Positions 11,851 to 57,948 of a stretch of 64,000 bases of DNA are shown here, piece after piece; the stretch's first letter is position 1, and each line of letters begins with the position of its first letter. The notes beneath the pieces were generated by a model. It made no database searches, was not told the origin of the DNA, and was given only the letters and a program-made list of their open reading frames with translations. The translations under genes and the position numbers were made by a program. Source of the stretch: an uncultured Pseudobdellovibrionaceae bacterium (GTDB lineage: Bacteria; Bdellovibrionota; Bdellovibrionia; Bdellovibrionales; UBA1609); NCBI GenBank assembly GCA_964389375.1, contig CAYMDP010000005.1, positions 765-64,764 of the forward strand. The letters run 5' to 3'.

Positions 11851-12020
11851 CTTTTGCCCGAGAAATCTTTTTCATTTTAATAAGTGTCCGCCGAAGACTA
11901 GTTCCGCAGGGCGGCCCAAAATTAGACCTGGTTATCAAACTAAATTCGAAGGGCCGACCGAGGATGTTCGACGGCTGAGGCGGAGCACTTATTAAAATGA
12001 AAAAGATTTCTCGGGCAAAG
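11851..12020. repeat. Palindromic intergenic element, copy A (core in reverse orientation)
   Basis: 33-34 bp self-complementary arms (ttgcccgagaaatctttttcattttaataagtg). They flank the shared core aagtgtccgccgaagactagttccgcagg ... ccgaggatgttcgacggctgaggcggagcactt. Confidence 0.9.
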
Positions 12021-12095
12021 AGCTGGACTTAAGTCCCATTGCATCTCTTTGAGAGCTAACATTCCTGATAAATTGAGGAGCGTCGGGAAGACTTC

Positions 12096-12124
12096 TTGAT
12101 TCGGCGCGGAATCTTTTCTATTCT
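12096..12124 (+). promoter_or_regulatory. Candidate sigma70-type promoter for divIVA
   Basis: TTGATT (12096-12101), a 17-nt spacer, then TATTCT (12119-12124). It lies about 22 nt upstream of the divIVA ATG, with an AAGGGGG Shine-Dalgarno in between. Confidence 0.35.
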
Positions 12125-12146
12125 AGAGATGGGTTAAGGGGGAAAT

Positions 12147-12719
12147 ATGAAGATCGCTCCAATAGATATCGCTCATAAGACATTCGGCCGGAAAATGATG
12201 GGACTGGATCCCGATGAAGTGACGGATTTTTTACGCGCCATTGCTGACGAGATGGAAAGTTTAGTGCGCGAGCGTAACAATCTTCGTGAAGCAATCCGAG
12301 ACCGCGACTTAACTTTGGCTGAATACAAAGAGCGTGATGAGTTACTAAAAAGCACAATCACTACAGCGACTAAGATGGCCGATAAACTTCAGCATGATGC
12401 GGATCGTGAAGCCCGCTTGATCTTGAACGATGCAAATCAAAAGGCCGATCTGATTGTCCGTGATGCTCGTGATAGTTTGAAAAAGATCTATCAAGAAATT
12501 ACTGATTTAAAGCGTCTTCGTATGCAGTTCGAAAACAATATGAAAGCGCTGGTTCAGTCTCATTTGACGATGTTAGAACAAGGTCAAAAGTATATGCCAA
12601 ACCCTTTGCTAGAGCCTCGAATCAACGCAGAGATGCAGGATAACAATTCCGAAGAGCAAATGATTAAGGCCCGCATGAGTGAGGCAGTTTCAAGAGCCAC
12701 TCGAGACAGCGAGTTCTAA
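12147..12719 (+). CDS. divIVA: DivIVA-domain cell-division/polarity protein
   Basis: MKIAPIDIAHKTFGRKMMGLDPDEVTDFL is the canonical DivIVA N-terminus, followed by coiled coil. Confidence 0.85.
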   Translation: MKIAPIDIAHKTFGRKMMGLDPDEVTDFLRAIADEMESLVRERNNLREAIRDRDLTLAEYKERDELLKSTITTATKMADKLQHDADREARLILNDANQKADLIVRDARDSLKKIYQEITDLKRLRMQFENNMKALVQSHLTMLEQGQKYMPNPLLEPRINAEMQDNNSEEQMIKARMSEAVSRATRDSEF

Positions 12720-12727
12720 TAAAAGCT

Positions 12728-12750
12728 GGAGCGACTGATCCAGTCGCTCC
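12728..12750. terminator. Hairpin between convergent genes (possible bidirectional terminator)
   Basis: ggagcgactg-atc-cagtcgctcc, a perfect 10-bp stem, starting 9 nt after the divIVA stop. No clear U-tract. Confidence 0.45.
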
Positions 12751-12761
12751 GCAACTTCAAT

Positions 12762-14816: not shown

Positions 14817-14913
14817 AAAAATCCTATCCAGAAAATGAGATAAAGAGCCAACCACTATTGTAGCTAAATATTCTCATCTCGTTCAGAAGAATTTGAGAGG
14901 TAGACCTTATAGT

Positions 14914-23061: not shown

Positions 23062-24006
23062 ATGTTACTCGTAAAGAACCTGTATATTAGATTTAAAGTT
23101 GGCCAGGCTTCTGAGGCTTATCAATTTGCAGCCCTCGTCCTTTTAACAATGTTTTTATTAAGCTTTCAGAATTGCGCTAAGGCTAAATTCACATCTTTAG
23201 ATGATGTTTCTGCGAAGTCGAACCTGGCTGTTGATTTAGACCCACCAGTTAACGGCGGGGACGTCCCGAACCCTACTGACGGAGATGCCGGAGGCAACGG
23301 GGGAGATGGGAACGGTGGCGGCAATGATGATGACCAGGATAATGGAAATGATGACGACAATGATGATGACGGAAATGATGATGACGACCAGGGTTCAAAT
23401 CCTGATGATGACCAGGAAGATCCAAACGAGTCCATTTGTTCAGCGGATGCCATCGTGAATGGGAGCTTCGAACTCACCGACTCAAGAAAGGGTTTAGTTC
23501 ACAATATCCAGCTCGACAATCTGGCGAATAGTTCTCAGCGCTGGGATGTTTTCCATAAACTTCCTGGAGTGAAGCCGAATTCCTTCTCTTGGTATACAGT
23601 CAAGGGATCTGGCATCGAAGTTCAGGCCAGTCTTTTAGGTCCGGCCTATGATGGAGTGAATTATGTAGAGTTGGATTCTCACCCAACAAGTCTGGATCAG
23701 TCGCGAACGAATTCAACGATGTCTCAACAAATCTATCTTCAGAAATCTGGTAAGTACCGTTTGGTGTTTTACTATAAGGCTAGAACTAAGAATGTGGCAG
23801 AAAACGACATCGAGGTCCTTATCAATGACAAGCTGGTTAAAGTTGTGAAAAGTCAAAATGAGCCGAACTGGAGAAAAGTCATTGTGAACTTAAACAATGT
23901 CAGTTCGGGTCACCACAAAGTCTCTTTTCGGGCGGCAGGCAAAGAAACAACTTACGGTGGTTTAATCGATAAGGTCAGTCTGCATAAGGTTTGTGCGAAG
24001 AAATAA
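23062..24006 (+). CDS. Secreted protein: lipobox, Asp/Asn/Gly-rich linker, DUF642-like (galactose-binding-like) domain
   Basis: SFQNCAK lipobox-like site. The low-complexity region GGDVPNPTDGDAGGNGGDGNGGGNDDDQDNGNDDDNDDDGNDDDDQG is encoded by nt 23254-23430. The C-terminal part has IVNGSFE...VNYVELD...YRLVFYYKAR. Confidence 0.55.
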   Translation: MLLVKNLYIRFKVGQASEAYQFAALVLLTMFLLSFQNCAKAKFTSLDDVSAKSNLAVDLDPPVNGGDVPNPTDGDAGGNGGDGNGGGNDDDQDNGNDDDNDDDGNDDDDQGSNPDDDQEDPNESICSADAIVNGSFELTDSRKGLVHNIQLDNLANSSQRWDVFHKLPGVKPNSFSWYTVKGSGIEVQASLLGPAYDGVNYVELDSHPTSLDQSRTNSTMSQQIYLQKSGKYRLVFYYKARTKNVAENDIEVLINDKLVKVVKSQNEPNWRKVIVNLNNVSSGHHKVSFRAAGKETTYGGLIDKVSLHKVCAKK

Positions 24007-27803: not shown

Positions 27804-27948
27804 CTTTTTAAAGAAATTTATTCGATCCGAGAAGTGCTCCGCCTCAGCCGTCGAACATTCTCGCTTCTCCTTCGGCTTTGCCGAAGGAGAAGCTGCGAAA
27901 CTAGTCTTCGGCGGACACTTCTCGGATCGAATAAATTTATTTAAAAAG
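27804..27948. repeat. Palindromic intergenic element, copy B (forward)
   Basis: Arms ctttttaaaGaaatttattcgatccgagaagtg and its complement, with one mismatch. Core is aagtgctccgcctcagccgtcgaacattctcg, a 12-bp apical hairpin, then ctgcgaaactagtcttcggcggacactt. Confidence 0.9.
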
Positions 27949-28091: not shown

Positions 28092-28565
28092 ATGAAGATA
28101 TTATTTGTTTGCCTTGGAAATATTTGTCGAAGTCCTGCCGCTGAGGGGGTTTTTCTTTCGCTTCTAGAAAAAGAAGGTGTGTCTAAAAACTTTGTTGTCG
28201 ATTCGGCTGGAACTTCTGCCCATCATGCAGGGGAGCCTGCAGATGCTCGTATGAGAAAGCATGCTTTGAAGCGGGGAATTGAGCTTCGCAGCATCTCTAG
28301 GCAATTCAATCCAGACGAAGATTTTGAGAGATTTGATTTGATCCTTGCGATGGACGAAATTAACGCTCAAGACATGATGGACGAGGCGCCAGACGCACAG
28401 GCTAAAGCCAAAATTAAGACGATGGTGTCTTACTGCAAAAAACATAAAGTTCCTCGGGTCCCAGATCCCTATTACGGGGGGCCAGAGGGGTTCGAAACGG
28501 TTTTGGATATACTAGAAGACGCTTGCTGGGAATTACTCGCCGAAATCAAGAAAAAGTCTTACTGA
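28092..28565 (+). CDS. Low-molecular-weight protein tyrosine phosphatase
   Basis: MKILFVCLGNICRSPAAE (CX5R-S P-loop) and the DPYYG motif near the C-terminus. Confidence 0.85.
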   Translation: MKILFVCLGNICRSPAAEGVFLSLLEKEGVSKNFVVDSAGTSAHHAGEPADARMRKHALKRGIELRSISRQFNPDEDFERFDLILAMDEINAQDMMDEAPDAQAKAKIKTMVSYCKKHKVPRVPDPYYGGPEGFETVLDILEDACWELLAEIKKKSY

Positions 28566-30697
28566 GTTTTTCGAAGTCTCATTTCGAGATCTATCGCTGT
28601 TGCGCGAAGCATTTCGAGGAGTGCACTTTCGTCATTTAGGTTGGTGTAGATCTTATCCAAGCGGCAAGCGTCGTCTGAGCGGCTAACACTTCGGTTTAAA
28701 GAAAAGGCCATTATCTTTTCAGAAAAACAAGCTCTGGTGGTCTCCTGTTGAGAAACGAGCTGACTCAACTCTATGGCGCCGTTTGCTCGAGCCCCTGGGC
28801 CTAAAATCGCACTTAAGTCCACTTGTGAATCGATAGGCACATAGGTTTGTATCGCATTTTGAGTTAGGCTGACGATTGGTTCTTGAGTCATGTGCATTCC
28901 GAAAGCATTGAAATTTGAAAGGCCAAAACCAAGCGGATTAATTTGGTTATGACAAGAGACGCAAGACGCACCCGAAGTCTTAATGTCAACTTTATCTCGC
29001 ATAGAAAGCACATGAGGAACTTCTGTCCCATTGAAAACATCAAGGGCGTTGGCCGGAGCGGATCCCGAGAGATCTAAACACAAAACGTCTTTTCTTAAAT
29101 GAACGGCTCTTAGAATTGGGCTGGTAATTTCACTTCCTGAAACCAGCATCGCTGCGCGTGTTAATATCCCGCCCCGCTCTTGGCTTGCTGGAAAACGCAC
29201 AGCATTGGACTCAGTCAGATTTTGAAAACTCGGGGAAGGTGTGGCTTGAGCGTAGATGCTCATAAGGTTTGAGCCTCTGGCTAAAGAGATATTGGAGGTA
29301 AATAGATCATTAAAGGTTCCACCGGAGGTCAAGGTGAAAGATCCAAACTCTTCCACCTCTTGAATCATCTCGGATCTTAAACTGTCGTTAAAACTAATGC
29401 CCGGAGCAAGTAGACCAAATCTTTCGTTTGGATTGAATCGTGGAGTTCGAGAGAGCTTTAGCCAATCATGCATATACTCTCTCATCGCATCATCGACTTT
29501 AGCTCGCTGAGAAAGAACATAGTTGAGGGTATTTAGATAGGCGGTTTCGGTCGAAAAATCTTCGCTTTGCGCTCTTCTCCAGAGTTCGTTATCGGGCATC
29601 GTATTCCATAAGCGATAGCTTAAGCGACTGACAAAGGCGTGAGGGGATAAGACGTAGGTATTTGCGGCCAGTTGCTGACTGGTCAAAAGATCCTGGTCTT
29701 CGATTTGAAATATAAAGTGGGGCGCCATCAACACTCTAAATACCAAGCGGTTTACCGCCTCTTGAGTGGTTACAGAATTAAATTCTGCAGAGTAAGTGGC
29801 TAGCTCATCTATGACTTCGCCAGTGTTTGTGGTGAGGTTGTGTTGTGGCTCGCGAATGGGGCGCCTGAAGGCTCGGCCGGCGAAGTTGCGGATCAGTTGA
29901 CCTCTGCAGGCTGCGGACAAGCTAGAGACATTAATGCTGCTACATGTGCCCGGATTTAGATTAATAAACTGAGTGACGAAATTATTAAGGTGCTGGCCCG
30001 AGATAGTTGTAGCAATTCTGTCGGCCACTTCGAAATGAGCGGTCGCATGGTCTCCAACAAAAGTGTTATTTTCCCTGCGAAAGCTTTGTCCCGTATCAGC
30101 TGGAAAGTTTGTTGCAGCCATCGCACTATCAACCATGGAAACCGCAGTATTTCTGGCGATGGAAAGGCTTAAAAGATCTTTTAAGGTGTTTGAGTACTGC
30201 CGCACACTTAGGCGTTTGGCGTGATTCGATCGCAACTTTTCGTTGTCGAACTGGTCAATGTCGCAGCGAAATGGAGATTGTCCCGAGGGCATGTCACCAA
30301 TCCAACTGTAAATCGCTTGGTAGTCCGAGTCCGGAATCGGACCCCGGCCTGTGGGCATATTATTCGCGACAGCACCAGCCTCATTGTAATTACTAAGTCG
30401 ATAGATCAGCTTAGACCTTCGGGGCTGGCCCGGAACGATAAGTCCCGCGCTGATAAATTGTTCTGCCGTATCAAATTCAAAGGAGATCGCGCTGCCTCCC
30501 GCTCTGTGGCAGGACATACAGTCCCGAGCAAGAATGGCCTTTGTGCTTTCAAAGAGTCGGTCACTGATGCCGGCCGATGAACTTTCTTGGGTTTGCATCT
30601 TCATCACGTCAAATTTAGAGCAAGCGTTCATTGAGGAAACCAACATTCCCAAGGGAAAAACAATGATTATGAAAAGTTTCACTTTAGAACTCATCAT
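28559..30697 (-). CDS. DUF1592/DUF1588-type protein with two CxxCH haem-binding motifs
   Basis: Signal or lipoprotein N-terminus (SSMNACS), CMSCH near the N-terminus, and CVSCHNQINPLGFGLSNFNAFG near the C-terminus. This matches the Planctomycete-cytochrome-like family architecture. Confidence 0.65.
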   Translation of the reverse strand: MMSSKVKLFIIIVFPLGMLVSSMNACSKFDVMKMQTQESSSAGISDRLFESTKAILARDCMSCHRAGGSAISFEFDTAEQFISAGLIVPGQPRRSKLIYRLSNYNEAGAVANNMPTGRGPIPDSDYQAIYSWIGDMPSGQSPFRCDIDQFDNEKLRSNHAKRLSVRQYSNTLKDLLSLSIARNTAVSMVDSAMAATNFPADTGQSFRRENNTFVGDHATAHFEVADRIATTISGQHLNNFVTQFINLNPGTCSSINVSSLSAACRGQLIRNFAGRAFRRPIREPQHNLTTNTGEVIDELATYSAEFNSVTTQEAVNRLVFRVLMAPHFIFQIEDQDLLTSQQLAANTYVLSPHAFVSRLSYRLWNTMPDNELWRRAQSEDFSTETAYLNTLNYVLSQRAKVDDAMREYMHDWLKLSRTPRFNPNERFGLLAPGISFNDSLRSEMIQEVEEFGSFTLTSGGTFNDLFTSNISLARGSNLMSIYAQATPSPSFQNLTESNAVRFPASQERGGILTRAAMLVSGSEITSPILRAVHLRKDVLCLDLSGSAPANALDVFNGTEVPHVLSMRDKVDIKTSGASCVSCHNQINPLGFGLSNFNAFGMHMTQEPIVSLTQNAIQTYVPIDSQVDLSAILGPGARANGAIELSQLVSQQETTRACFSEKIMAFSLNRSVSRSDDACRLDKIYTNLNDESALLEMLRATAIDLEMRLRKTQ

Positions 30698-32385
30698 GCG
30701 GCATTGGATCCTGGCATGGGGAGAGGGTCTTTATAGTGATGGTAGTTTGTTCGTGCATACTCCTGAGAGTACATCTGCTGATTGGTATAGTACCAAACGC
30801 CACTCGTTGAAGCACCGATATGGCCGTAGCCTCCGACTCGGGCGACTCCATTATTATGTGCGCCCAGCAAACCATCCATTCGGTTCTGAAAGAATAGATT
30901 GATTTCGGGATCCTCATATTCATTTGGGTTTAATCCGAGGGCACGAAGGATGGTGGTTAGCGAGCGATTGTAATGGGCTCCATGGTAGCAGTGTCCAAAT
31001 CGGGGATTAGATGGATCCGGTTCAAAGTTGTCGCCCTGATTGACGTGAGGACCAAGCTCTCTGCGGGAATAGTCAATGAGGTGACCCGTTGTGATCGCCC
31101 CATTCGCACTTCCGATTAGCAAACAGGGCTTATTCATATCTGAATGGACTGTTGAGCATTCTAAAGTCAGGTGGACCAATGAATTATCAAGGGCACTTCG
31201 CCCGTTGGCTTCTATGACTTGATCTAGACCGGAAACAAGAGGAACTAAGAAACCATCGATAAAAAGGCGCCAAATTTCTCCCATATAAGCATGATTTATT
31301 TTGTTTCCGTTTGATGCCACTTGCGCCCAAGGTTGATGGCTGTGGCCTTGGTGAAAATCTTCGGTGTTATGGCGATCAAAATAATGGTCGAGCATGCCCG
31401 TGTGAAAATCAAAGACTCGGTGCAGATCACAAGAGGCCGCAGCTACAAATATTTTTGCAAATAGGTCGTAGGCATAGGCGTGTTGTTCGGGATTGTATTG
31501 ATGGCCAAAAGAGACGCCATCGTTTCGAGTTCTGTTTCCGTCAATGCTAGAGTAACTGCAGCCCGTCGTTGTCTGATTGGACCCAAGGCGACTTTGAATA
31601 TCTGAGAAGCGGTCCAGAGCATTATCCAAAACCTGAGCGTCTTCGCTACTGATATGCCGGCCTCTTCGAATTCTTTGATAGTCTTCAAGGACTCTAGATA
31701 GGGCATCCCGTCTGGGGTGGGCTTGGCTTGAGCCACCCGATTCTGGAATGGGCACGCCCCCTCGGGTAAAGAGTTGGTCAAAAAGCTGGTGGGGTTTCGG
31801 CCATCTTCCGCTGGCACGCTGGACGGTTCCGTTTTGATCTCTAAGAAATGACCAGGCCTCTCCAAGAATCAGTGGGTCATTGGAGTGCGGGGTAAATCTT
31901 CTATTGGCCGCAAGAACTTGATCTATTGTAGGGAGTCTTTTGAGTGCAGTGACGGTCGTGTCGTGTCCATCGGTCGCAGCAATATTTCCAAGCATGTGTC
32001 CCTGACCGTGACCAATCCGGGTATGAAGATTGAGGCCGCGAAAGAGATTCATCTTATTCACAAAAGGGTTCAGCCGATTTCCAAAAATCGGCGAAAGCAT
32101 GGAGTTCGTCTGCGGAAGAAAAGTGTTCAATCTTTGATAGCGATAGCTTAAATCAGTACCGGAGGACCCAACCAGAGGAAGTTCGTTTAAAGTTGGAAAC
32201 CAGTTTTGATGGTGCCCATAGTCGTAGTTTCCGACCATGCTAAAGTATCTCTTAATTACAGCAGGGCTTTGGCCCCAAGCTTCGCGAGGTAACAGAGAGG
32301 GAAGTAGCGGAATGGCTAGTGTAAAACCACCCATTCCCTTTAAAAACATACGACGCGGATAAGTCTGCTTTTTGTATTTACCCAT
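30694..32385 (-). CDS. DUF1552-family protein with a twin-arginine signal
   Basis: YPRRMFLKGMGGFTLAIPLLPSL (Tat-like). There is an ATGA-type 4-nt overlap with the downstream DUF1592-like gene, the usual pairing for these families. Confidence 0.65.
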   Translation of the reverse strand: MGKYKKQTYPRRMFLKGMGGFTLAIPLLPSLLPREAWGQSPAVIKRYFSMVGNYDYGHHQNWFPTLNELPLVGSSGTDLSYRYQRLNTFLPQTNSMLSPIFGNRLNPFVNKMNLFRGLNLHTRIGHGQGHMLGNIAATDGHDTTVTALKRLPTIDQVLAANRRFTPHSNDPLILGEAWSFLRDQNGTVQRASGRWPKPHQLFDQLFTRGGVPIPESGGSSQAHPRRDALSRVLEDYQRIRRGRHISSEDAQVLDNALDRFSDIQSRLGSNQTTTGCSYSSIDGNRTRNDGVSFGHQYNPEQHAYAYDLFAKIFVAAASCDLHRVFDFHTGMLDHYFDRHNTEDFHQGHSHQPWAQVASNGNKINHAYMGEIWRLFIDGFLVPLVSGLDQVIEANGRSALDNSLVHLTLECSTVHSDMNKPCLLIGSANGAITTGHLIDYSRRELGPHVNQGDNFEPDPSNPRFGHCYHGAHYNRSLTTILRALGLNPNEYEDPEINLFFQNRMDGLLGAHNNGVARVGGYGHIGASTSGVWYYTNQQMYSQEYARTNYHHYKDPLPMPGSNAA

Positions 32386-32684: not shown

Positions 32685-33518
32685 TTAGCCTAAAAGTTTT
32701 AAGGCCATTTGTTGCATCGAGTTTGTCTGACCTAAAATCGAAACCGCAGCTTGCTTTAGAATCGTGTTTCGTGTCAGCTCCGCTGTTTCTTCTGCGATAT
32801 CCGCATCACGGATTCGAGAGTTTGCAGCAGATAAGTTCTCGTGTGCAATTGCCAAGTTATTAATTGTCGATGTCAGTCTATTTTGCATGGCTCCGAAGTT
32901 CGCTCGCATCGCGTTTACAGAGATCATCGCATTGTCCACAACATCTAAACTTAACTGGGCTTGCTCTTTCGTCGCTAAAGATTCAGCGACTAGACCAAGT
33001 GACTCAAGAGTTGAGTTGGCCGCCGAAGAGTTAAAAGATATTCGATCTTTAAAGTTGTCGTTTTGAACTCCAACTTGAATATCCATCACTCCGCCGGTTC
33101 CGTTCAGAAGATCTCGACCGTTAAAAGTCGTGACTTCTGCAACCCTCTGAATTTCAGACTTTAGCTGTTGATATTCAACGTCAGTAAACTTTCGTTCAAT
33201 ATCTCCGACCGTGTCTGAAGCCGCTTGGATCGCGAGCTCTCTCAAACGAATCAACATTGCTGAGATTTCGTTCAAACCACCTTCTGCAACTTGAACGAGG
33301 GAAATACCGTCGTTCGCGTTTCGGCTAGCTTGTTTTAAGCCTCGGATCTGTCCTTTCAGGTTTTCGCTGATGGCCAGACCTGCGGCATCATCTGCCGCTT
33401 GGTTGATTCTAAAACCGGAACTCAATCGGGCGAGCGATGTATCCAAAGCTCGATTTGTTGAGAACAGATTTTTTTGGGCGTTGAGAGATGCAACGTTCGT
33501 TGCTATTCTTAATCCCAT
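32685..33518 (-). CDS. fliC: Flagellin
   Basis: MGLRIATNVASLNAQKNL... ends ...LGQTNSMQQMALKLLG. The ATG at 33518 has an AAGGAGGA Shine-Dalgarno. The ORF-track start at 33608 is an upstream extension. Confidence 0.9.
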   Translation of the reverse strand: MGLRIATNVASLNAQKNLFSTNRALDTSLARLSSGFRINQAADDAAGLAISENLKGQIRGLKQASRNANDGISLVQVAEGGLNEISAMLIRLRELAIQAASDTVGDIERKFTDVEYQQLKSEIQRVAEVTTFNGRDLLNGTGGVMDIQVGVQNDNFKDRISFNSSAANSTLESLGLVAESLATKEQAQLSLDVVDNAMISVNAMRANFGAMQNRLTSTINNLAIAHENLSAANSRIRDADIAEETAELTRNTILKQAAVSILGQTNSMQQMALKLLG

Positions 33519-33807
33519 ACTTATCCTCCTTGCATTTTCCGTCCTCCTTGACTGTTGCCATCCATTGGCTACGAGCACATTCTGTGCCGCGGTTATTATT
33601 ATGGACATACGATTTGCTACAACAGCAAAGCCTATGTCAGGCTCTCCTTCTGAAACTCAGAGCGAAGTCACCCAATAACGAATCGGTATTTTTCGAAGAT
33701 TTTTTGAGTCCAGTTTTTTGTTATTTTTGTGGCGTAGATTTTTTGAGAGAAAGAAGAAATTAAAAACTTCCCGTTAAGATTCGGGATTCATGTTTACCTT
33801 TAAGGAA

Positions 33808-33838
33808 TTTGGGCTTCGTCTTTTCAGACGAGCCCAAA
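33808..33838 (-). terminator. Hairpin downstream of fliC (33967)
   Basis: tttgggcttcgtc-ttttca-gacgagcccaaa, a 12-bp stem with one bulge. Confidence 0.4.
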
Positions 33839-33892
33839 AACTTCGCAGGAAACAAGTTATCATTCAGTACCGTCCGAGTTCGCCTCGGGTTC

Positions 33893-33915
33893 AGAAGGAC
33901 AATCCTTGTCCTTCT
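33893..33915 (-). terminator. Hairpin downstream of fliC (33967)
   Basis: agaaggacaa-tcc-ttgtccttct, perfect 10-nt arms, about 52 nt after the stop codon. Confidence 0.35.
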
Positions 33916-33966
33916 GGTGAGCTAAAGTTCTATGAACCAGGCTCGGTTAGTCGGAAGTGATTCCGA

Positions 33967-34812
33967 TTAACCGAAGGTCTTGTTCAAGAGCGAGAGAGCC
34001 GTTTGAGCCGTCTGGTTCGCTTGTGCGAGCACAGAAGTTCCTGCGTTCAACAAGATATTATTCTTGGTGAGCTCAGCGGTCTCTTCAGCAACATCAACAT
34101 CTCGAATACGACTATTTGCAGCCGACATATTTTCAACCGACACCGCTAAGTTGCTGATGGTCGATTGTAAACGGTTTTGGATTGCTCCAAAGTCCGCTCT
34201 CATCGCGGAAACACTTACAATCGATGAATCGATCGCAGAAAGTGCGTTTTGAGCAGAGGCTTTATCAGCCACACTGGTCAAATTCACTCCCAATGCCGCA
34301 GCATTGGCATCTGCTTTTGATGCATCAAAAGAAAGTCTGTCAATATTTGGATCGTTTCGAGTTCCAACTTGGAAATCGAGGATAGATCCGGTTCCGCTAA
34401 GGAGTTGAGTTCCGTTGAACTCAGTTCCGTCGGCAATTCGATCAATCTCAGACACAAGCTGATCATATTCCACGTTTAGGAATTGTCTTTCTACAGGCCC
34501 GATCGTATCTGAAGCGGCTTGTACGGACAATTCTCTAAGGCGGATCAGAATCGAGCTGATCTCGTTTAGCGCTCCTTCTGCCACTTGGACAAGGGAGACC
34601 CCATCCTGAGCATTTCTCGAAGCTTGCTTTAAGCCTCGAATTTGAGCTTTTAAGTTTTCGGATATCGCGAGACCGGCGGCATCGTCGCCCGCGCGATTGA
34701 TACGGAAGCCCGAAGACAACCGTTCTAATGATTTATCCAATCCTAACTTCGTGCCCATCAGATTTCTCTGGGCATTCAACGAAGCCGTATTGGTGTTAAT
34801 TCTCAAACCCAT
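33967..34812 (-). CDS. fliC: Flagellin
   Basis: MGLRINTNTASLNAQRNL... ends ...LAQANQTAQTALSLLNKTFG. The Shine-Dalgarno is AAGGAGGAGGA. Confidence 0.9.
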   Translation of the reverse strand: MGLRINTNTASLNAQRNLMGTKLGLDKSLERLSSGFRINRAGDDAAGLAISENLKAQIRGLKQASRNAQDGVSLVQVAEGALNEISSILIRLRELSVQAASDTIGPVERQFLNVEYDQLVSEIDRIADGTEFNGTQLLSGTGSILDFQVGTRNDPNIDRLSFDASKADANAAALGVNLTSVADKASAQNALSAIDSSIVSVSAMRADFGAIQNRLQSTISNLAVSVENMSAANSRIRDVDVAEETAELTKNNILLNAGTSVLAQANQTAQTALSLLNKTFG

Positions 34813-40871: not shown

Positions 40872-41262
40872 ATTTGACCGGGTTCTTTACTTCGACGGCG
40901 TCTGCAATCTGTGTAATCACTTTGTCGATTGGGTGATCCGAAGAAATAATTTTGCGCAAATTCGAGTTGCTTCCCTGCAAGGGGAGCACGCAAAAAATCA
41001 TTTACCATTAGAGCTGCGGGAAAATATGACTTCCGTCGTCTATCAACGTGAGGGAAAAAATTTATTAAAATCAGATGCCGCCCTTTGGATTCTTAAAGAC
41101 CTTCAGGTTTTCGGAGCTCTTCCGAGCCTTCTACTGTGGACTCCATCATCTCTGAGAAATTTCATTTACGATCTTATCGCCAAGTCCAGATACTCAGTCT
41201 TCGGAAAAAGAGAAAGCTGCCGCTTGCCGACTCCTCAAGAAAAAGAATATTTTTTAGACTAG
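40864..41262 (+). CDS. DCC-family thiol-disulfide oxidoreductase (DUF393)
   Basis: LYFDGVCNLCNHFVDWV (DGxCxLC motif). Confidence 0.75.
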   Translation: MSKFDRVLYFDGVCNLCNHFVDWVIRRNNFAQIRVASLQGEHAKNHLPLELRENMTSVVYQREGKNLLKSDAALWILKDLQVFGALPSLLLWTPSSLRNFIYDLIAKSRYSVFGKRESCRLPTPQEKEYFLD

Positions 41263-41295
41263 AGCTCGGTGAAGCCAGGTCCTTGCTTTTGGGCG

Positions 41296-41577
41296 GAGAA
41301 ATTCTTTCCCTTTTATAAGTGCTCCGCCTCAGCCGTCGAACATTCTCGGTCGGCCCTTTGGGCCGCCCTGCGAAACGGGGTTGTATCCTGCAATTTCAAG
41401 CCACAGCTGACTTGTTATTTTTGCTTATGGCTTCGTTGCTCCTCCTTGAATTAGCTTGCGCTAGTCCATCGTCGTCGCGCCTCACCATAAGCAAAAATCC
41501 CTGCCTCATCTGTGGCTTGAAATTGCAGGATACAACCCAGTCTTCGGCGGACACTTATAAAAGGGAAAGAATTTCTC
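41296..41577. repeat. Palindromic intergenic element, copy C (forward), interrupted by a nested palindrome
   Basis: Arms gagaaattctttcccttttataagtg and its complement. The core is intact except that ctgcgaaac|...|agtcttcggcgg is split by 162 bp. Confidence 0.9.
41377..41538. repeat. Nested 162-bp palindromic insertion inside copy C
   Basis: Perfect 29-bp terminal inverted repeats, gggttgtatcctgcaatttcaagccacag and ctgtggcttgaaattgcaggatacaaccc. There is a further inner inverted repeat, tttttgcttatgg and ccataagcaaaaa. Confidence 0.85.
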
Positions 41578-41695
41578 TGACACAATGTTGGGGCAAGGGA
41601 GTATTGCGGGAACTAGGATATTGACATATTCCTCCCGTTTTCATCGCACATTTATATTATTTTAGTTCCGGACTTACTATTTACAAGCGTCTCGT

Positions 41696-41820
41696 CCGGA
41701 AAGTCTGTTCCCATTTTTTAAGTGTCCGCCGAAGACTAGTTTCGCAGGGCTGCCGCAGGCAGACCGAGAATGTTCGACGGCTGAGGCGGAGCACTTAAAA
41801 AATGGGAACAGACTTTTCGG
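41696..41820. repeat. Palindromic intergenic element, copy D (reverse)
   Basis: Arms ccgGaaagtctgttcccattttttaagtg and its complement, with one mismatch. The full core is present. It ends 6 nt before the stop of the SDR gene. Confidence 0.9.
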
Positions 41821-41826
41821 TCAAAG

Positions 41827-42645
41827 TTAGAGACCGGCGTTGGCTATTAGCATTTGGCCGCTGACGGCGGAATTAAGTGGGCTTACGAGGTATGCAATAA
41901 AGTGCGCGATTTCGGTGGGCTCAATAATTCTGGCCCAGGGTTTTTCTTTTCGAAATTGCTCTAAGGCTTGCTGAATGGTTAATCCGTTTTGAGTTTGTTG
42001 CATCAACACATCTTCGGTTAATCCTAAGCAAACTCCGTTCATCGTGATCCCTTTTTCAAATACAGATCTTGCGGTTTCAGAAACAAAGCGAGCCATCTCA
42101 CTTTGAATTTCTTTGCCCGAGGTCAGGGCTTCATCGTGGGCTAAAATCAAAATGTGACCACGCTGGCGGCCCTTTAAAAAAGGCAGTCCCGCTTCGGCCA
42201 TCAGTTGAGCTTGCTTCCACTCGATCATGGCCTCTTCCATTTTTGCATTTAGACTGCGAAGCATTCGAGCGTCGATCAAGGCATCAATACCTCCGAAAGA
42301 CTCGGCCACTCTTCCGATTGCCTCTTGGGCTGAGGCAAGATCGGTAACTTGTGCATCAACCACTAGTCCTCGTCCATGGCGGGCGTGGACTTCTCGGACA
42401 TCGTTGATATTTTCCATAAAGCGCCGAGACTCGTTACTGGCTTGGGTAACAAAGCCCACGTCTGCGCCGTGTTCCGCTAAAACATGAATGATCCCCTGAG
42501 TTAGGGGGCTTAAGTGGCCACTAAGGACGATGGTCTTATCGCTGAGTTTAAAGCCGGATTCGCGCAAAGCAGAGCCTCCAGTCATAAGTGTCTTCGAATT
42601 GAGGCGAAGTTTTTTAAGTGTAGGGGGCTTAAGAAGTCCAGTCAA
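41827..42645 (-). CDS. Short-chain dehydrogenase/reductase-like protein (divergent)
   Basis: Rossmann-like TIVLSGHLSPLTQGIIHVLAEHGADVGFV and a C-terminal ...VSGQMLIANAGL typical of SDRs. The glycine motif is atypical. Confidence 0.55.
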   Translation of the reverse strand: MTGLLKPPTLKKLRLNSKTLMTGGSALRESGFKLSDKTIVLSGHLSPLTQGIIHVLAEHGADVGFVTQASNESRRFMENINDVREVHARHGRGLVVDAQVTDLASAQEAIGRVAESFGGIDALIDARMLRSLNAKMEEAMIEWKQAQLMAEAGLPFLKGRQRGHILILAHDEALTSGKEIQSEMARFVSETARSVFEKGITMNGVCLGLTEDVLMQQTQNGLTIQQALEQFRKEKPWARIIEPTEIAHFIAYLVSPLNSAVSGQMLIANAGL

Positions 42646-42697
42646 TTGACCCCAAACAGATTGTGCCTTATGACCTGGGCTTTAAAGGAGATCAGGC

Positions 42698-43954
42698 ATG
42701 CGTGTAGTCGTAGTGGGTTCAGGCGGAAGAGAGCATGCCCTTGTGCGCGCTTTAAAACACTCGCCCTCGGTGACTGAGGTGCATGCCCTTCCAGGTAGTG
42801 CCGGGATGTCTCAAGAAGCTCTTTGCCACAATATTGACCCGATGGACCAGGATGCCGTTTTAGCTTATGTGAAGCGAGCTGCTGTAGATTTAGTGGTCAT
42901 TGGGCCCGAGGTTTATTTGGCTCGGGGGTTAGCGGATCAATTAAGGGCCCAGGGGGTCTTTGTGTTTGGTCCCAATCAAGAGGCCGCTCGTCTTGAAGCA
43001 AGTAAAGTCTTTGCTAAAGAATTTATGATGGAAGCTCAGGTTCCTACCGCGAGATACCATGTGGTGGTTTCTGTCGAAGAGACTTTAAAAGCTGCCGAGT
43101 CCTTTGCGCCGCCTTATGTTTTGAAGGCAGATGGACTAGCTGCCGGCAAAGGGGTCTTTATTTGTAAGGACCTAGTGGAGTTAAAGCTTGAAGCAGAAAA
43201 CTTGTTTGTTAAAAAAACTTTGGGTGCAGCTGGGGAAAAAGCCTTACTTGAAGAGTTTCAGCCGGGTGCCGAACTTTCGTTTTTAGTATTAACCAACGGA
43301 CATGATTTTAGGGCTCTTCCTCTTGCACAAGATCATAAGCGCTTAAAAAATAAAGATCAGGGACCCAATACCGGTGGAATGGGAGTCGTAGCACCCCTTC
43401 AAATTTCTGAAGAGTTGCGGACTGTGATTGAAGAACAGCTTGTCCGCCCTTCGATTCAACAAATAGAACGCAAAGGTTTAATGTACAGAGGCCTTTTGTA
43501 TGTTGGGGTCATTTTTTCCGAGTCCGGCCCTAAAGTCTTGGAATATAATGTTCGCTTTGGAGACCCCGAAGCCCAGGCCCTTTTGCCTTTACTGAATGGG
43601 GATTGGGGGCAGACTTTACTCGAGATCGCCAAGGGGAACTTACCCACTGTGAAATGGAACTCTCTTTTTTCGGCCTGTGTCGTTCTTGCGGCGAAAGGTT
43701 ATCCGGACAAGCCTGAAAAGGGCAGCGAGATTTCGGGGGATCTTTTTTTCCAAACGGCTTCGAGTTATTTTCTTCATGCGGGAACCAGTCGTGGCACAGA
43801 TCAAAAGTGGACTGTCAGTGGCGGACGAGTTTTAAATGCGATTGGCCTGGGCTCTTCTTCGGATGAAGCCGTTCGCAATGCCTACGCTCAAGCTGAAAAA
43901 GCATCCTGGGATGGATTGCAAAAACGCACCGATATCGGCGCCTACCAGAGGTAA
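42698..43954 (+). CDS. purD: Phosphoribosylamine--glycine ligase
   Basis: MRVVVVGSGGREHAL, an ATP-grasp core, and a full-length PurD-like sequence. Confidence 0.95.
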   Translation: MRVVVVGSGGREHALVRALKHSPSVTEVHALPGSAGMSQEALCHNIDPMDQDAVLAYVKRAAVDLVVIGPEVYLARGLADQLRAQGVFVFGPNQEAARLEASKVFAKEFMMEAQVPTARYHVVVSVEETLKAAESFAPPYVLKADGLAAGKGVFICKDLVELKLEAENLFVKKTLGAAGEKALLEEFQPGAELSFLVLTNGHDFRALPLAQDHKRLKNKDQGPNTGGMGVVAPLQISEELRTVIEEQLVRPSIQQIERKGLMYRGLLYVGVIFSESGPKVLEYNVRFGDPEAQALLPLLNGDWGQTLLEIAKGNLPTVKWNSLFSACVVLAAKGYPDKPEKGSEISGDLFFQTASSYFLHAGTSRGTDQKWTVSGGRVLNAIGLGSSSDEAVRNAYAQAEKASWDGLQKRTDIGAYQR

Positions 43955-44064
43955 CAGTTCCCTTTTCCCGTCTCAGCGCATCACCCACGAAAGATACTCC
44001 GATCCAGGAGATCCTTGAAAAAGCTCCGTGATGCGTTGAGACGGGAAAAGGGAACTGTTACCTC
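43948..44064. terminator. 117-bp palindrome between convergent purD and the GT2 gene (37-nt arms, 43-nt loop)
   Basis: The left arm is gaggtaacagttcccttttcccgtctcagcgcatcac (43948-43984). The right arm is its complement (44028-44064), with a single G/T difference. The left arm includes the purD stop codon. Confidence 0.7.
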
Positions 44065-45135
44065 TTAACGAGATTTTAAAAATTTTAGAGGGGACTTCAG
44101 TTTTTTTGATTCTATGACAGAGGTCGGTACGCGTCTTAATTTTGCCATCATCTCTTGGCATTGTCCTCGAGCATAACCAGAATGAGTCAGAAAAAAAGCA
44201 AATGCAGTCATAAGGATTTTTTTAAAGTTCGGCTCGGACCGGTTTAAACGGGTACTTTCTGCGAGAACTCCAAAGAAGTACAGCCAAAAAGGCAAAGCCA
44301 AGACAAGACTATAAAATGAAAAAGTAAAATTAAACATCAAAAGGACATAGGCGGGTCCAAGATAAAAAGCCATTCCATCAGAACTGGAGGATTGAAACTG
44401 TGTTCGGATCGAGTTTTCTCCAAAACGCTCCATGCGTAAAAACCACTCTTTCCAGTTTTCTGCACAATTGTTTAAGACCATGGGGCTTGGGCATAGACGA
44501 AGCTCGTAGCCATAGGCGCTAAGTCTACGTCCAATGTCGACATCTTCTCCGACATTATTTTGAGTGCTGCGAAAGTTTCCAACTCTTAAGACCGCTTCTT
44601 TGCTGAGCAAGATGTTTGTGGTGGCGAGATGAAAAACAGATTGTGAATGCTGAGGCCAAAATGCTTGAGGCGAGTGACCGTGTCCGAGGGGTGAAGACAA
44701 ACTTAAGTTTAGAGCCGAGTGAAACAAAGTCTTTTCAGGGAGGCGGTTTGGACCTCCGACGGCGGCGGTGTCACGGTTACTGAACTGATTTTCATTCAAC
44801 TGCTGGACAAGAGATTCGATCCAATTTGGTGGAAGGATGCAATCGCCATCAGTAAAGGCGATCCAAGGGGTGCGAGAGGCACTGACTATTCCTGCGCGGC
44901 CGAGACCCAAATCATTGACCGAGGATTCGAAGATCTCGATGGGCCAAGGGGATTTACCTTTAAGGCCTTCGATGATTTGTAAGGTTTGATCCTCAGATCC
45001 ATTGTCGACAATAATAATTTCGCGGACAAGTTGTGTTTGGCTTTGATCAAACAAAGACTCCAGCAAGGGGCCAATATTCTTGGCTTCATTTCTTAGGACA
45101 AGTCCGATGGTGATCTGCTGTGGCTCTTGGATCAT
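44065..45135 (-). CDS. Family 2 glycosyltransferase with C-terminal TM segments
   Basis: IIIVDNGSEDQT and AFTDGDC (DxD) motifs, followed by hydrophobic helices. Confidence 0.8.
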   Translation of the reverse strand: MIQEPQQITIGLVLRNEAKNIGPLLESLFDQSQTQLVREIIIVDNGSEDQTLQIIEGLKGKSPWPIEIFESSVNDLGLGRAGIVSASRTPWIAFTDGDCILPPNWIESLVQQLNENQFSNRDTAAVGGPNRLPEKTLFHSALNLSLSSPLGHGHSPQAFWPQHSQSVFHLATTNILLSKEAVLRVGNFRSTQNNVGEDVDIGRRLSAYGYELRLCPSPMVLNNCAENWKEWFLRMERFGENSIRTQFQSSSSDGMAFYLGPAYVLLMFNFTFSFYSLVLALPFWLYFFGVLAESTRLNRSEPNFKKILMTAFAFFLTHSGYARGQCQEMMAKLRRVPTSVIESKKLKSPLKFLKSR

Positions 45136-54499: not shown

Positions 54500-54518
54500 G
54501 CTCCGTTAAAAGCATAGC

Positions 54519-55892
54519 ATGTCTCAGCCCTCATTCTCCGCCATAATATTGGCCGCTGGCAAAGGAACTCGCATGAAGTCCCCCCTGCCAAAGGTCCTGC
54601 ATCCCGTCGCGGGTCATCCGATGATCTATCGCACGGTGCGTAGTGTTCAGGCCGCAGGCGCAGAAGAGATCCGCATGGTCGTGGGTTTTGGAGAAGAACT
54701 GGTTCGCCGAGTTGTTGAGCCCCTTGGCAGCCGATGTTTTAGGCAGGCCAATCAATGGGGCACCGGGGACGCAGTAAAGGCGGCTCAGCCGGATAGTCTT
54801 TCTGGCCCAGTTCTAATTTTAAACGGCGACCACCCCTTGATCGAAGCTTCGGATCTTAAAAAAATTATGAAGGAATTCGTCAGTCGAAAGGCAGACATGG
54901 CGGTTGTAACCTGTCGCCTCGAAGAGCCGGGCTCTTTTGGACGAATCGTTCGCTATCATGGTCAAGTTAAGGCGATCGTCGAAGCCAAAGATGCAAGTGC
55001 AGAGGCCAAAAAAATTAATGAAGTGAATACTGGAATTTATGTTGTCGACGCCGTTTTGCTTGCCGAGCTTTTACCAAAAGTAAAAAGTCACAACGCCCAG
55101 AACGAATACTACCTGACGGATATTGTGTCCCTGTTTGTTGAAGAGGGAGGACGAGTGGAAGGAATTGAGATGGACAAAAAAGTTGCCTTTGGAGTGAATT
55201 CACAAAAGGAGTTGGCCATGGCCACAGAGACAGTGTTTCAAAAAACTGCCGAGCGCCTGCTTGAAGCCGGAGTGATTTTAATTGATCCCAAAAGAACCTA
55301 CATCGAGGAAGATGCTGAAATCGGTGAAGGCACTGTGATTTATCCAGGATGCTATCTCAAAGGAAAAACAAAAATTGGAAAGCTTTGTGTTCTTGAACCG
55401 AATTGTTTTATCGATTCATCAACAATTGGTGACAGCTGCCAAATCAAAGCCGGATCTTATTTAGACCACGCAGATGTTCAGACCTTAAGCCAAATTGGAC
55501 CCTATGCTCACCTTCGCCCGGGTTCTGAGATCGGAAAAAACTGTAAAGTCGGAAACTTCGTCGAAATGAAGAAGGTTAAGTTTGGGGACGGTTCAAAAGC
55601 CTCTCATCTGACGTACCTCGGTGATGCGATTGTGGGTAAAGACGTGAACATTGGTTGTGGAACGATTACCTGCAACTATGCAGCCGACAAAAAGAAATAT
55701 ATCACGCGAATTGAAGACGAAGTATTTGTAGGAAGTGATACCCAATTTGTTGCTCCCGTCGTTATCGGAAAGGGCGCGGTTATTGGATCGGGCTCGACAA
55801 TTACAAAAGATGTTCCAGAGGGAGCCCTTGCGGTCACCCGTGCAAAACAAGTCATTAAAGAAAATTACAGAAGCAGACTCAGCGAGAGTTAG
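54519..55892 (+). CDS. glmU: Bifunctional GlcNAc-1-P uridyltransferase / GlcN-1-P acetyltransferase
   Basis: ILAAGKGTRMKS, with C-terminal hexapeptide-repeat beta-helix sequence. Confidence 0.95.
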   Translation: MSQPSFSAIILAAGKGTRMKSPLPKVLHPVAGHPMIYRTVRSVQAAGAEEIRMVVGFGEELVRRVVEPLGSRCFRQANQWGTGDAVKAAQPDSLSGPVLILNGDHPLIEASDLKKIMKEFVSRKADMAVVTCRLEEPGSFGRIVRYHGQVKAIVEAKDASAEAKKINEVNTGIYVVDAVLLAELLPKVKSHNAQNEYYLTDIVSLFVEEGGRVEGIEMDKKVAFGVNSQKELAMATETVFQKTAERLLEAGVILIDPKRTYIEEDAEIGEGTVIYPGCYLKGKTKIGKLCVLEPNCFIDSSTIGDSCQIKAGSYLDHADVQTLSQIGPYAHLRPGSEIGKNCKVGNFVEMKKVKFGDGSKASHLTYLGDAIVGKDVNIGCGTITCNYAADKKKYITRIEDEVFVGSDTQFVAPVVIGKGAVIGSGSTITKDVPEGALAVTRAKQVIKENYRSRLSES

Positions 55893-55913
55893 AAAAGATT
55901 CGGAGTATTTTGA

Positions 55914-57800
55914 ATGTGTGGAATTGTTGGCTACCTTGGACCTAAAGATCCGAAACAAATTATTGTCTCTGGCTTAAAGGCCTTAGAGTATCGTGGCTAT
56001 GACAGTGCCGGAGTCGCGATCCTTCATCATGGAAAATTTAAACGGGTTCGCGCCGAGGGCAAGCTTTTAAATCTTGAAAGCCGACTTTTAAACGAAGAGT
56101 TTGATGGTCATCTGGGAATTGGACACACGCGCTGGGCGACCCATGGTCCCCCTTCCGAGCGAAATGCTCATCCTCATTGCGTGGGCGGAGTCAGCATTGT
56201 TCACAACGGGATCATCGAAAACTATTCCGAACTTCGTGAAGACCTGATTGATAATGGATCGATTCTAGAGTCAGATACGGATTCAGAACTTGTAGCTCAC
56301 CTGATTCATCGAGAAGTGAGCGCGGGCAAAGATCTTTTAAGCTCGGTCTTTGCGGTTCTTCCAAAACTTCGCGGAGCCTTTTCGATTCTGGCAGTCAGTG
56401 AAGATCAGCCCGATGAAATGGTGGCCTTTAAAAATGGACCACCTTTGATTGTGGGTGTTGGCGCAACCGAAACTCTGGTTGCAAGTGATATCCAGGCGAT
56501 TATGCCCTACACGCAAAATGTGATTTTTTTAGAAGACGATCAGATCGTACATGCACGCGGTATTCAACTTCAGATGTACTCTCCCGATGGAAAAAAACTT
56601 ACAGTAAAGCCTCGGATGATGGAGTGGAGCCCTGAGCTTGTCGAGAAAAAGGGCTATCCTCATTTTATGTTGAAAGAAATTTTCGAGCAGCCGCGGGCGG
56701 TGGCCTCGGCCATTACTCCACATATTGATCTCGAAAAACATGAGCTGAGTCTGAATAAGATTGGCTTTTCAGCAAATCATATTTCTGAACTTGATCAATT
56801 GGATGAAATGAAAGACCGAATTTTTACCAATCAAGTTTTTGCAGGCATCGAAAGAATTTTTATTGTGGCCTGTGGGACCAGTTTTTATGCAGGCATGGTT
56901 GGGGAGTATTTGATCGAGCGACTGTGTGGAGTTCCAGTTGAGGTGGATATTGCGAGTGAATTTCGCTACCGACATCCAGTGATTCCAAGCAATTCGATGG
57001 TGATCGTAATTTCTCAAAGTGGAGAAACTGCGGATACCTTGGCCGCACTCAGACTGGCCAAAGAAGTGGGCGCAAAAGTCTTAAGCATTTGCAATGTGAA
57101 GAACTCTTCTATCGATCGAGAATCTGATGGCCATATTTATATGAAGGCCGGAGTGGAAATCGGGGTTGCCAGCACAAAAGCTTTGACGGCGACCTTGGCC
57201 CTTTTAAATGTGCTGGCTTTGGCAATTGCAAAGGCGCGGGGGAGATTGTCGCACGCGGAAGAAAAGGAAGCGGTTCAAGAATTGTTGGCGACGCCAAGCC
57301 AGATGGAAAAGGTATTGGCCTACGATAAGTTTTTCTCTGAAGCCGCAAGCTCCCTACAAGACTTTAGAGGCTTTTTATACATGGGACGAGGGGCGAGCTA
57401 TGCCATGGCTCTTGAAGGCGCCTTAAAGCTTAAGGAGCTAGCCTATCTTCATGCTGAGGGCTACGCCGCGGGCGAAATGAAGCACGGCCCACTGGCTTTA
57501 ATTGATGAAAAAATGGCGATCGTGATGCTGGCTCCAAAAGATGAGCTTTACGAAAAAACCGTCAGCAATCTAGAAGAAGCCCGAGCTCGTGCTGGAAAGA
57601 TTATTTGTATCGGTACAGGAGAAGACGAGCGGCTTAAAAAAGTATCGCTTCATTATTTGGCCTTGCCTGAAGTGAGTTGGAATTTAAATCCTCTACTTCA
57701 AGTCATCCCTTTGCAGCTTTTGGCCTACCATATCGCCTCCTCCTTAGGTCTAGATGTGGACCAGCCCCGTAACCTCGCTAAGTCCGTGACAGTCGAATAG
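55914..57800 (+). CDS. glmS: Glutamine--fructose-6-phosphate aminotransferase
   Basis: MCGIVGY N-terminal nucleophile, two SIS domains, and the C-terminal ...KSVTVE. Confidence 0.95.
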
Positions 57801-57812
57801 CCTGATTCGACT

Positions 57813-57948
57813 CCTTGTCCGAGAAGTTCAATTTCATTTAATAAGTGTCCGCCTTAGCCGTCGAACATTCTCGGCCCGCCTGCGGCGGTCCTGCGAAACT
57901 AGTCTTCGGCGGGCACTTATTAAATGAAATTGAACTTCTCGGACAAGG
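57813..57948. repeat. Palindromic intergenic element, copy E (forward)
   Basis: 35-bp perfect arms, ccttgtccgagaagttcaatttcatttaataagtg and its complement. The core is aagtgtccgccttagccgtcgaacattctcgg, then ccgcc-tgc-ggcgg, then ctgcgaaactagtcttcggcgggcactt. Confidence 0.9.

Follow-up and report, generated by a model that had tools for sequence, protein, structure and literature searches.

A 64-kb stretch of DNA from one uncultured Bdellovibrio-like bacterium (hereafter the window) carries five copies of a palindromic intergenic repeat, in which a nearly invariant, asymmetric core is enclosed by arms that diverge from copy to copy but remain paired. All statistics below rest on these five copies. 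A Pfam scan of the 50 larger open reading frames (ORFs) of the window, 14 of which had no family match, identified the genes upstream of the copies as proC, a gene for an ABC1/UbiB-like kinase, a DCC1-like gene, an SDR gene and glmS, the same neighbours as those named in a first-pass annotation made from the sequence alone. All five copies located by that annotation were recovered, as listed here with their scores under R1, a covariance model built from the five copies.

Copy 1: 11851-12020, core on the minus strand, opposite in direction to the flanking genes, proC (stop 11830) and divIVA (start 12147); 143.9 bits
Copy 2: 27804-27948, plus strand, 14 nt past the ABC1/UbiB-like gene; 142.6 bits
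Copy 3: 41296-41577, plus strand, 33 nt past the DCC1-like gene
Copy 4: 41696-41820, minus strand, 6 nt past the SDR gene (minus strand, stop 41827); 145.9 bits
Copy 5: 57813-57948, plus strand, 12 nt past glmS; 145.6 bits

Copies 3 and 4 lie head-to-head, 118 bp apart, between convergent genes. The measured distances to the stop codons (20-22 nt for copy 1, and 14, 33, 6 and 12 nt for copies 2 to 5) agree with the 6-33 nt annotated earlier. In the three co-directional cases, the element lies 12-21 nt from the stop and 84-127 nt from the next start; by coordinate arithmetic with 50 nt reserved for a promoter, the chance of such stop-proximal placement is about 0.01. The core has the same orientation as the upstream gene in four of the five copies. 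This placement would suit a cis-acting structured RNA with a host function, transcribed with the upstream gene as part of its 3' untranslated region (UTR): its long stem would act as a barrier to 3' exonucleases or as a substrate of RNase III, and a protein or another RNA would bind to the open core, tuning the stability or translation of the upstream message. E. coli REP elements do stabilise upstream mRNA, and those near a stop codon can affect translation. On the other side, copy 1 is reversed relative to transcription and is otherwise like the rest, being equally near its stop codon, and the 4:1 orientation ratio is not significant (one-sided p ~0.19).

Every copy folds as a rod, with folding z-scores of -8 to -15, values that would also be in keeping with a 3' UTR RNA; the unit is 125-280 bp long. 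Its outermost layer is an AT-rich arm pair of 21-30 bp, fully matched in three copies, with one mismatch in each of the other two: the arms measure 29 bp in copy 1 (perfect), 28 bp in copy 2 (one G.A mismatch), 21 bp in copy 3 (perfect) and 24 bp in copy 4 (one A.C mismatch), and copy 5 has a 41-nt arm pair when the closing stem is counted in. The arms lead into a conserved closing stem of 11 bp, AAGTG(C)TCCGCC/GGCGGACACTT, formed by the pairing of AAGTG with CACTT and of TCCGCC with GGCGGA. The single bulged base that had been described for this stem, a C, is present in every copy except copy 5, where there is a U.G pair and no bulge. Beyond the stem lies an asymmetric internal loop, whose 5' strand (TCAGCCGTCGAACATTCTCG) is about 20 nt long and whose 3' strand (CTGCGAAACTAGTCTTC) is about 17 nt long. 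The loop is capped by a GC-rich apical hairpin, which varies in sequence with compensation and keeps a pyrimidine-pyrimidine mismatch at one position in four copies. The apical hairpin of copy 2 is different and longer (13 bp).

The two halves of the core were used as probes across the window, with 100 dinucleotide-preserving shuffles of the window as the chance control. The 5' half (26 nt, TCCGCCTCAGCCGTCGAACATTCTCG) consists of the closing-stem strand and the 5' side of the open internal loop, and the 3' half (28 nt, CTGCGAAACTAGTCTTCGGCGGACACTT) consists of the 3' side of the loop and the other closing-stem strand. At no more than one mismatch, they occur at five and four sites, respectively, and neither was matched in any of the 100 shuffles:

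5' core: 11959-11984 (minus), 27838-27863 (plus), 41323-41348 (plus), 41765-41790 (minus), 57848-57873 (plus)
3' core: 11882-11909 (minus), 27893-27920 (plus), 41720-41747 (minus), 57891-57918 (plus)

In copy 3, a nested palindrome (41375-41541) separates the GAAAC of the 3' core from its AGTC. The core letters reported in the first-pass annotation stand overall, with departures in three copies: copy 2 reads CTCGC in place of CTCGG, copy 1 has ATCCTCGG and GCGGAAC, and copy 5 has CTTAG and GGCGGGC.

The inner halves of the core had been described as non-complementary, and folding bears this out. When the inner segments alone were shuffled, the real forward strand folded worse than 96% of the shuffles, which leaves no hidden pairing; for this reason, the bubble of the internal loop seems to be maintained in an open state. 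On the opposite strand, G.U-mediated pairing between the inner halves was rejected, as 73% of shuffles folded equally well, and the folding difference between the strands is accounted for by base composition. An arrangement of the inner halves as direct repeats, of the kind that a symmetric dimer would bind, was likewise rejected: its alignment score was matched by 12% of shuffles. Extra sequence is tolerated at two positions, both in loops. One is the apical loop of copy 1 (11921-11953, minus strand), which holds an insertion of about 31 nt, TTCGAATTTAGTTTGATAACCAGGTCTAATTTT, missing from the otherwise identical hairpin of copy 3; the other is the ACTAGT site of the 3' loop, occupied in copy 3.

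Copy-to-copy identity and pairing were counted on a curated alignment of the five copies, and the pairing was controlled by sliding the register by 1-3 columns and by 500 shuffles. Mean pairwise identity was 97.5% in the 5' core and 95.8% in the 3' core versus about 51% in the arms, and 5 of 61 core columns were variable as against 23 of 26 arm columns (Fisher p=3e-13). With five copies against zero expected and a core about 97% identical, the earlier proposal of a structured, non-random family with an invariant asymmetric core is upheld. That the finding arose by chance or from faulty assembly, for instance through fold-back chimeras, is in our estimation of negligible probability. The genome is that of an uncultured organism, where such errors might be suspected; however, the five copies are interior and intergenic, share a 54-nt common core with zero chance matches, and have unique arms and flanks, whereas fold-backs arise at contig ends and would have no common asymmetric core.

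Divergent as they are, the arms pair. Standard pairs fill 96% of the arm and stem cells, compared with 40-55% once the register is slid, and none of the 500 shuffles attained any of the observed pairing measures. Both sides have changed in 29 of the 49 pairs (43 cells), one-sided changes to G.U number only 2, and wobble pairs make up about 1% of cells; the covariation is thus essentially of the Watson-Crick type. Length changes are mirrored as well. Copy 1 differs from copy 5 by a 1-nt arm indel that is compensated in the opposite arm, and in copy 2 about 20 bp of the inner arm are gone symmetrically from both sides, such that CCGAG abuts AAGTG, and the arms have been extended outward by a new palindromic stretch of 23 bp. 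The mismatches that do occur in the arms (G.A, A.C) show no bias to either strand. A role of the arms as guides, or an origin as copies of local sequence, was rejected: their matches at other places in the window did not exceed 13 nt.

The near absence of wobble pairs from AT-rich stems, together with the symmetry of the indels, points to complementarity that is kept at the DNA level, with one arm copied from the other, rather than by selection on an RNA. Mirrored indels would be very unlikely to arise as independent events, and they accord with one arm serving as the template for the other. A DNA-level route to such perfection is known: template switching during replication turns imperfect inverted repeats into perfect ones (PMC7202029), and quasipalindrome correction of this kind would account for Watson-Crick-only arms and symmetric indels. 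It is, however, a mutational process and not a repeat family, and acting alone it would tend to erase an asymmetric core, which here is conserved.

The same record bears on the 3' UTR RNA. Helices of variable length that radiate from a conserved junction, together with loop expansions, are seen in many structured RNAs and would be at home in such an element. Against this stand the 43 double changes versus two to G.U, although A-U to G.U requires only a single transition; the symmetric compensation of indels; and perfect stems of 35-45 bp, which are atypical of functional RNAs. On balance, we consider a 3' UTR RNA with a host function unlikely.

A uniform core between non-uniform arms would also be produced if the element were composite, that is, if the core of about 77 nt were a young miniature mobile element, bounded by 11-12 bp terminal inverted repeats (TIRs; AAGTG(C)TCCGCC/GGCGGACACTT), that inserts specifically at the apex of older, diverged intergenic palindromes. 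Some insertion sequences (IS1397 and IS110-family members) target REP-type palindromes, and the loops and apices of the present elements do receive insertions, namely the nested palindrome at ACTAGT in copy 3 and the apical-loop insert of copy 1. A core-less palindrome of similar size past purD (43947-44065) would also fit. Yet its similarity to the family is not significant, and no isolated core without arms was found in the window, where R1 detected the five copies only, plus a hairpin-driven match on the palindrome past purD. Moreover, arm pairing passes unbroken into AAGTG/CACTT in all five copies with no remnant of a former loop, and in four of the five the arm pairs are homologous to one another and keep a common register with respect to the core (CCGAGAA...TTTNAT-AAGTG), evidence that arms and core were inherited as one unit. 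We therefore regard a composite origin as improbable.

The history of the elements was read from syntenic relatives. The nearest GlmS in a collection of 5.8 billion proteins is 74% identical to that of the window, and the named matches, at 64-68%, belong to Bdellovibrionales, Pseudobdellovibrionaceae and Bdellovibrio; the host therefore represents a poorly sampled Bdellovibrionota lineage. Three relatives have in common the gene order HD-domain gene, 340-385 aa gene, SDR gene (minus strand) and purD, followed further along by genes for a sigma-54 activator, a histidine kinase and an M14 peptidase, and by glmU and glmS. In these three relatives, the SDR gene overlaps the gene before it; in the window, this junction is occupied by the DCC gene and copies 3 and 4. 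The gap past glmS spans 8-103 nt in four relatives, and in the window it houses copy 5. About 59 kb of sequence from the four relatives contained no long inverted repeat and no R1 match. Because the syntenic relatives have short or overlapping junctions and no long palindromes, the elements are, on this comparison, a lineage-specific gain, that is, insertions relative to these relatives, and by the same reasoning they do not represent conserved regulation of these genes. That the syntenic relatives lack the element also weighs against the 3' UTR RNA, as it leaves no conserved regulator of proC, glmS and the other genes.

The segment 40864-41826 (~960 bp), which comprises the DCC1-like gene and copies 3 and 4, is missing as a whole at the junction in the three syntenic relatives, in which the upstream gene, of 340-375 aa, abuts or overlaps the SDR gene. 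The DCC1-like gene may have arrived with, or beside, the repeats.

The comparison with relatives is equally relevant to a host site acting at the DNA level, whose duplex or cruciform form would bind a chromosomal protein, with host selection conserving the core. Candidate binders would be a nucleoid-associated protein, a topoisomerase, or a priming or single-strand initiation factor, comparable to the binding of IHF and gyrase by BIMEs. The core is indeed strongly constrained in every copy, the covariation carries a DNA-level signature, the copies occur in both orientations and are regularly spaced at about one per 13 kb, and the bubble is kept open between GC clamps, an arrangement that resembles hairpin signals for single-strand initiation. 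Nevertheless, relatives with the same gene order do without the element, such that no conserved cellular process relies on it; copy 3 has been retained although the nested insertion disrupts its 3' loop; and no candidate binding protein was identified. We accordingly assign a low probability to a host site of this kind.

We favour, tentatively, the reading that the family is a non-autonomous, REP/MITE-like DNA repeat (MITE, miniature inverted-repeat transposable element), with an open asymmetric core that an enzyme encoded elsewhere would recognise when the element is folded as a hairpin. We infer a hairpin intermediate, a protein partner, mobility and a mechanism of symmetrisation. The family would have entered 3' intergenic DNA in a Bdellovibrionota-like genome, and its members would become active when extruded, for instance at replication, as a cruciform or as a hairpin of single-stranded DNA. 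The arms would drive folding only, and the open core would offer a sequence-specific surface that is bound, and probably cut, by the enzyme, for which an HUH/Y1-type single-strand transposase such as RAYT or IS200-family TnpA is the obvious candidate. Copies with an intact core and paired arms would propagate, freezing the core by element-level selection; the arms would drift until a DNA-templated process restored their symmetry. Intrastrand template switching as at quasipalindromes, mismatch correction in the hairpin, and fold-back synthesis on mobilisation are candidate routes to this symmetry. A precedent for selection at the level of the element is provided by REPIN hairpins, in which compensatory changes accumulate under such selection (PMC3116915).

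The first-pass annotation had already favoured a DNA-level mobile origin. Watson-Crick covariation, compensated indels and insertion relative to relatives speak for this part of the proposal, whereas the occurrence in both orientations, on which it had leaned, amounts to one reversed copy among five relative to the upstream genes. The core may form the specific protein- or RNA-recognition surface that it suggested.

Several observations weigh against a mobile DNA repeat. No target-site duplication, conserved target motif or within-species presence/absence polymorphism that would speak for mobility was seen. No two of the five copies have arms in common, which gives no sign of a recent burst. 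No transposase, RAYT, integrase or Y1/HUH protein was found among the 50 larger ORFs of the window, consistent with the earlier statement that a transposase or RAYT gene is lacking there. The cores of four of the five copies follow the direction of the upstream gene, and all copies are much nearer the stop than the next start, as would fit a role in the 3' UTR. A conserved centre with variable ends is the opposite of the layout of REPINs and TIR-type MITEs, which makes the analogy with HUH substrates a loose one. Finally, the sample is confined to five copies in one 64-kb window.

A more radical version of the mobile repeat, to which we give little credence at present, is a new mode of propagation in which the open bubble, kept between two helices, would serve as the recognition and cleavage module and the arms would be regenerated from each other in each cycle. 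Hairpin-primed or fold-back synthesis would drive this regeneration, as a chromosomal counterpart to rolling-hairpin "hairpin transfer", and would explain at once why the arms are divergent yet paired, why indels are mirrored, and why the arms measure about 21-30 bp. If this were true, the partner would be a new or re-purposed structure-specific nuclease or transposase.

Among known systems, REPINs parallel several features of the family. Like them, the elements are short, non-coding extragenic repeats that form long hairpins in single-stranded DNA or mRNA and carry compensatory changes (PMC3116915); they likewise occur in one lineage, cluster near gene ends and, as proposed here, depend on a single enzyme encoded elsewhere (PMC3116915). 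The extragenic, multi-copy, hairpin-forming and compensatory character of REPINs is found here in five intergenic copies with 29 of 49 pairs changed on both sides. REPINs are, however, defined by two conserved inverted REPs at their ends with a less conserved, compensated spacer between them (PMC3116915), whereas the ends of the present elements are 51% identical and the centre 96-97%, the conserved part being central and asymmetric. REPINs also go with a RAYT gene in the same genome, typically one with REPs on its flanks; no RAYT was found among the ORFs scanned. As for sequence motifs, REP hairpins carry a conserved GTAG-type tetranucleotide on their 5' side. No GTAG was present beside the apical hairpin on either strand, its flanks reading ...ATTCTCG(G)/CTGCGAAAC and ...TTTCGCAG/(C)CGAGAAT.

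Classical TIR-type MITEs, which are mobilised by a transposase, differ in that their ends are conserved from copy to copy and match a parent insertion sequence, whereas 23 of 26 outer-arm columns vary here; no parent insertion sequence lies in the window, and no direct repeat of the kind left by target-site duplication flanks any of the five palindromes. The attC recombination sites of integrons are structured single-stranded DNA sites placed right past stop codons, with free stem sequence, conserved structure and an asymmetry of extrahelical bases, and in these respects they resemble the elements. They differ in having R''/R' boxes (RYYYAAC / GTTRRRY) at their outer ends, a variable centre, and cassette ORFs near intI. 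The outer ends of the present family read CTTTG.CCGAGAA ... TTCTCGG.CAAAG, without R boxes, and its neighbours are housekeeping genes (proC, glmS, purD and others) in conserved synteny, with no integrase among the ORFs scanned. Since it has no end REPs, GTAG, conserved TIR, target-site duplication or R box, the family falls outside the REPIN, TIR-type MITE and attC classes. The label REP/MITE-like given to it earlier is therefore apt only loosely, the defining features of REPINs and TIR-type MITEs being absent, and the family may work like REPINs despite its reversed layout.

The ERIC/IRU elements of enterobacteria and the Correia/NEMIS elements of Neisseria are full-length imperfect palindromes of about 100-160 bp in transcribed intergenic DNA near genes, and their larger variants hold insertions at defined internal sites. 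In these descriptive terms, they resemble the present family in size, imperfect palindromy, gene-near intergenic position and internal-site insertions. They conserve the whole sequence or the terminal inverted repeats, whereas the arms here are about 51% identical; Correia elements in addition have a TA target duplication, and none was seen here. PATEs, which derive from IS200/IS605, have distinct subterminal hairpins on the left and right, no TIR, and insert 3' of a fixed tetra- or pentanucleotide. The present elements have instead one central imperfect hairpin (with the pyrimidine-pyrimidine mismatch in four copies) and inverted repeats as ends, and no common motif lies beside the insertions, five copies being too few to exclude a target motif. 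An intrinsic terminator was rejected, as the stems are AT-rich and no T-run follows the 3' arm, and a terminator scan of 41000-44300 found no site inside the elements; in line with the earlier argument, the element is not a plain terminator, with no U-tract after a GC-rich stem.

Searches for the element beyond the window were negative. The 5' 22-mer had no match in GTDB representative genomes or in JGI metagenomes, neither the 5' 22-mer nor the 3' 20-mer matched in IMG/VR, and the whole element searched at low stringency had no match among plasmids and phages. In JGI metagenomes, the 3' 20-mer matched six loci (three distinct sequences), which were dismissed as chance, with no 5' half, palindrome or model score. 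Rfam 15, run over the window and the element regions, gave nothing at the gathering threshold, a null that covers self-cleaving ribozymes, 6S, Y RNA and IS605/IscB-associated RNAs, and that counts against the 3' UTR RNA; at E<=10, only miRNA-type long-hairpin models appeared, far under threshold. A hammerhead ribozyme was rejected by eye, GAAAC...GUC being present and CUGANGA absent. A promoter scan found nothing inside the elements, and a resemblance of the core and arms to sigma-28/sigma-70 motifs, judged by eye, was set aside, as the spacing and the upstream element vary between copies. In the full-text literature, one of the core strings occurs in an unrelated E. coli paper and the others returned nothing, and nothing relevant was found on palindromic repeats in Bdellovibrio. 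The comparison with described families that the first-pass annotation had called for thus produced no match in Rfam or in the literature; the architecture of the family is unusual and apparently previously undescribed, although intergenic palindromic repeats are as a broad kind already known.

Repeats such as REP, BIME, ERIC, Correia and REPIN shape bacterial genome structure, mRNA stability and recombination, and their mobilisation has been worked out for few types. The reversed layout of the present family, a conserved unpaired centre with free mirrored arms, separates the part that is recognised from the part that merely folds. If the core is the substrate of an enzyme acting on single-stranded DNA, it would constitute a compact recognition module. 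For arm symmetrisation, the family offers an example that occurs naturally in bacterial chromosomal DNA, and it marks a poorly sampled Bdellovibrionota lineage with an unusually high load of long palindromes.

In total, the 64-kb window contains six or seven long palindromes, and the loops of the element hairpins are themselves insertion sites, as in copies 1 and 3. The two palindromes outside the family are as follows:

41375-41541, plus strand: palindrome nested in copy 3, with 36-nt arms (94% complementary) and a 95-nt centre that has its own inner inverted repeat
43947-44065: core-less palindrome between purD and a GT2 glycosyltransferase gene, with 38-nt arms (97% complementary) and a 43-nt centre

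The nested palindrome is single-copy in the window and adds a third helix to the core at its ACTAGT site; it may be a member of a second repeat family or a local hairpin expansion. The core-less palindrome exactly fills the gap between two convergent genes: its left arm holds the last purD codons and the TAA, and its right arm ends at the GT2 stop. In two relatives (L083 and a JGI contig), the gene ends overlap at this junction. Its interpretation as a symmetrised family member was rejected, given the hairpin-driven R1 match and the non-significant similarity.

In a relative whose GlmS is 72% identical, three independent contigs end 26-27 nt past the glmS stop with the same sequence (…TAAAAAGGTTCCAGGTACTTTTTCGACACC):

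L083: 11888-11914, contig end past glmS
L084: 5145-5170, contig end past glmS
L085: 2761-2786, contig end past glmS

The shared end points to a repeat from another family at the corresponding position. A related repeat was rejected, the ends being unlike the core, and the GGTTCCA similarity between these ends and the sequence past proC is a coincidence.

Elsewhere in the window, two tandem flagellin genes lie on the minus strand at 32685-34812, and the surrounding intergenic regions have no copy of the family. Large FHA-domain proteins are encoded at 3934-8452 and 60520-63066, as three adjacent minus-strand genes and one 848-aa protein; one of the FHA-domain proteins also has a YscD-like cytoplasmic domain of type III secretion systems. 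A gene pair with Planctomycete-type domains lies at 28559-32385, with PSCyt3/PSD2-5 (DUF1585-1595) and a cytochrome c-like motif beside DUF1552 (HXXSHH). Finally, the ORF at 23062-24006, for which Pfam gave no match, contains imperfect tandem repeats rich in GATGATGAC at 23306-23429, and as translated these repeats would encode an acidic low-complexity stretch.

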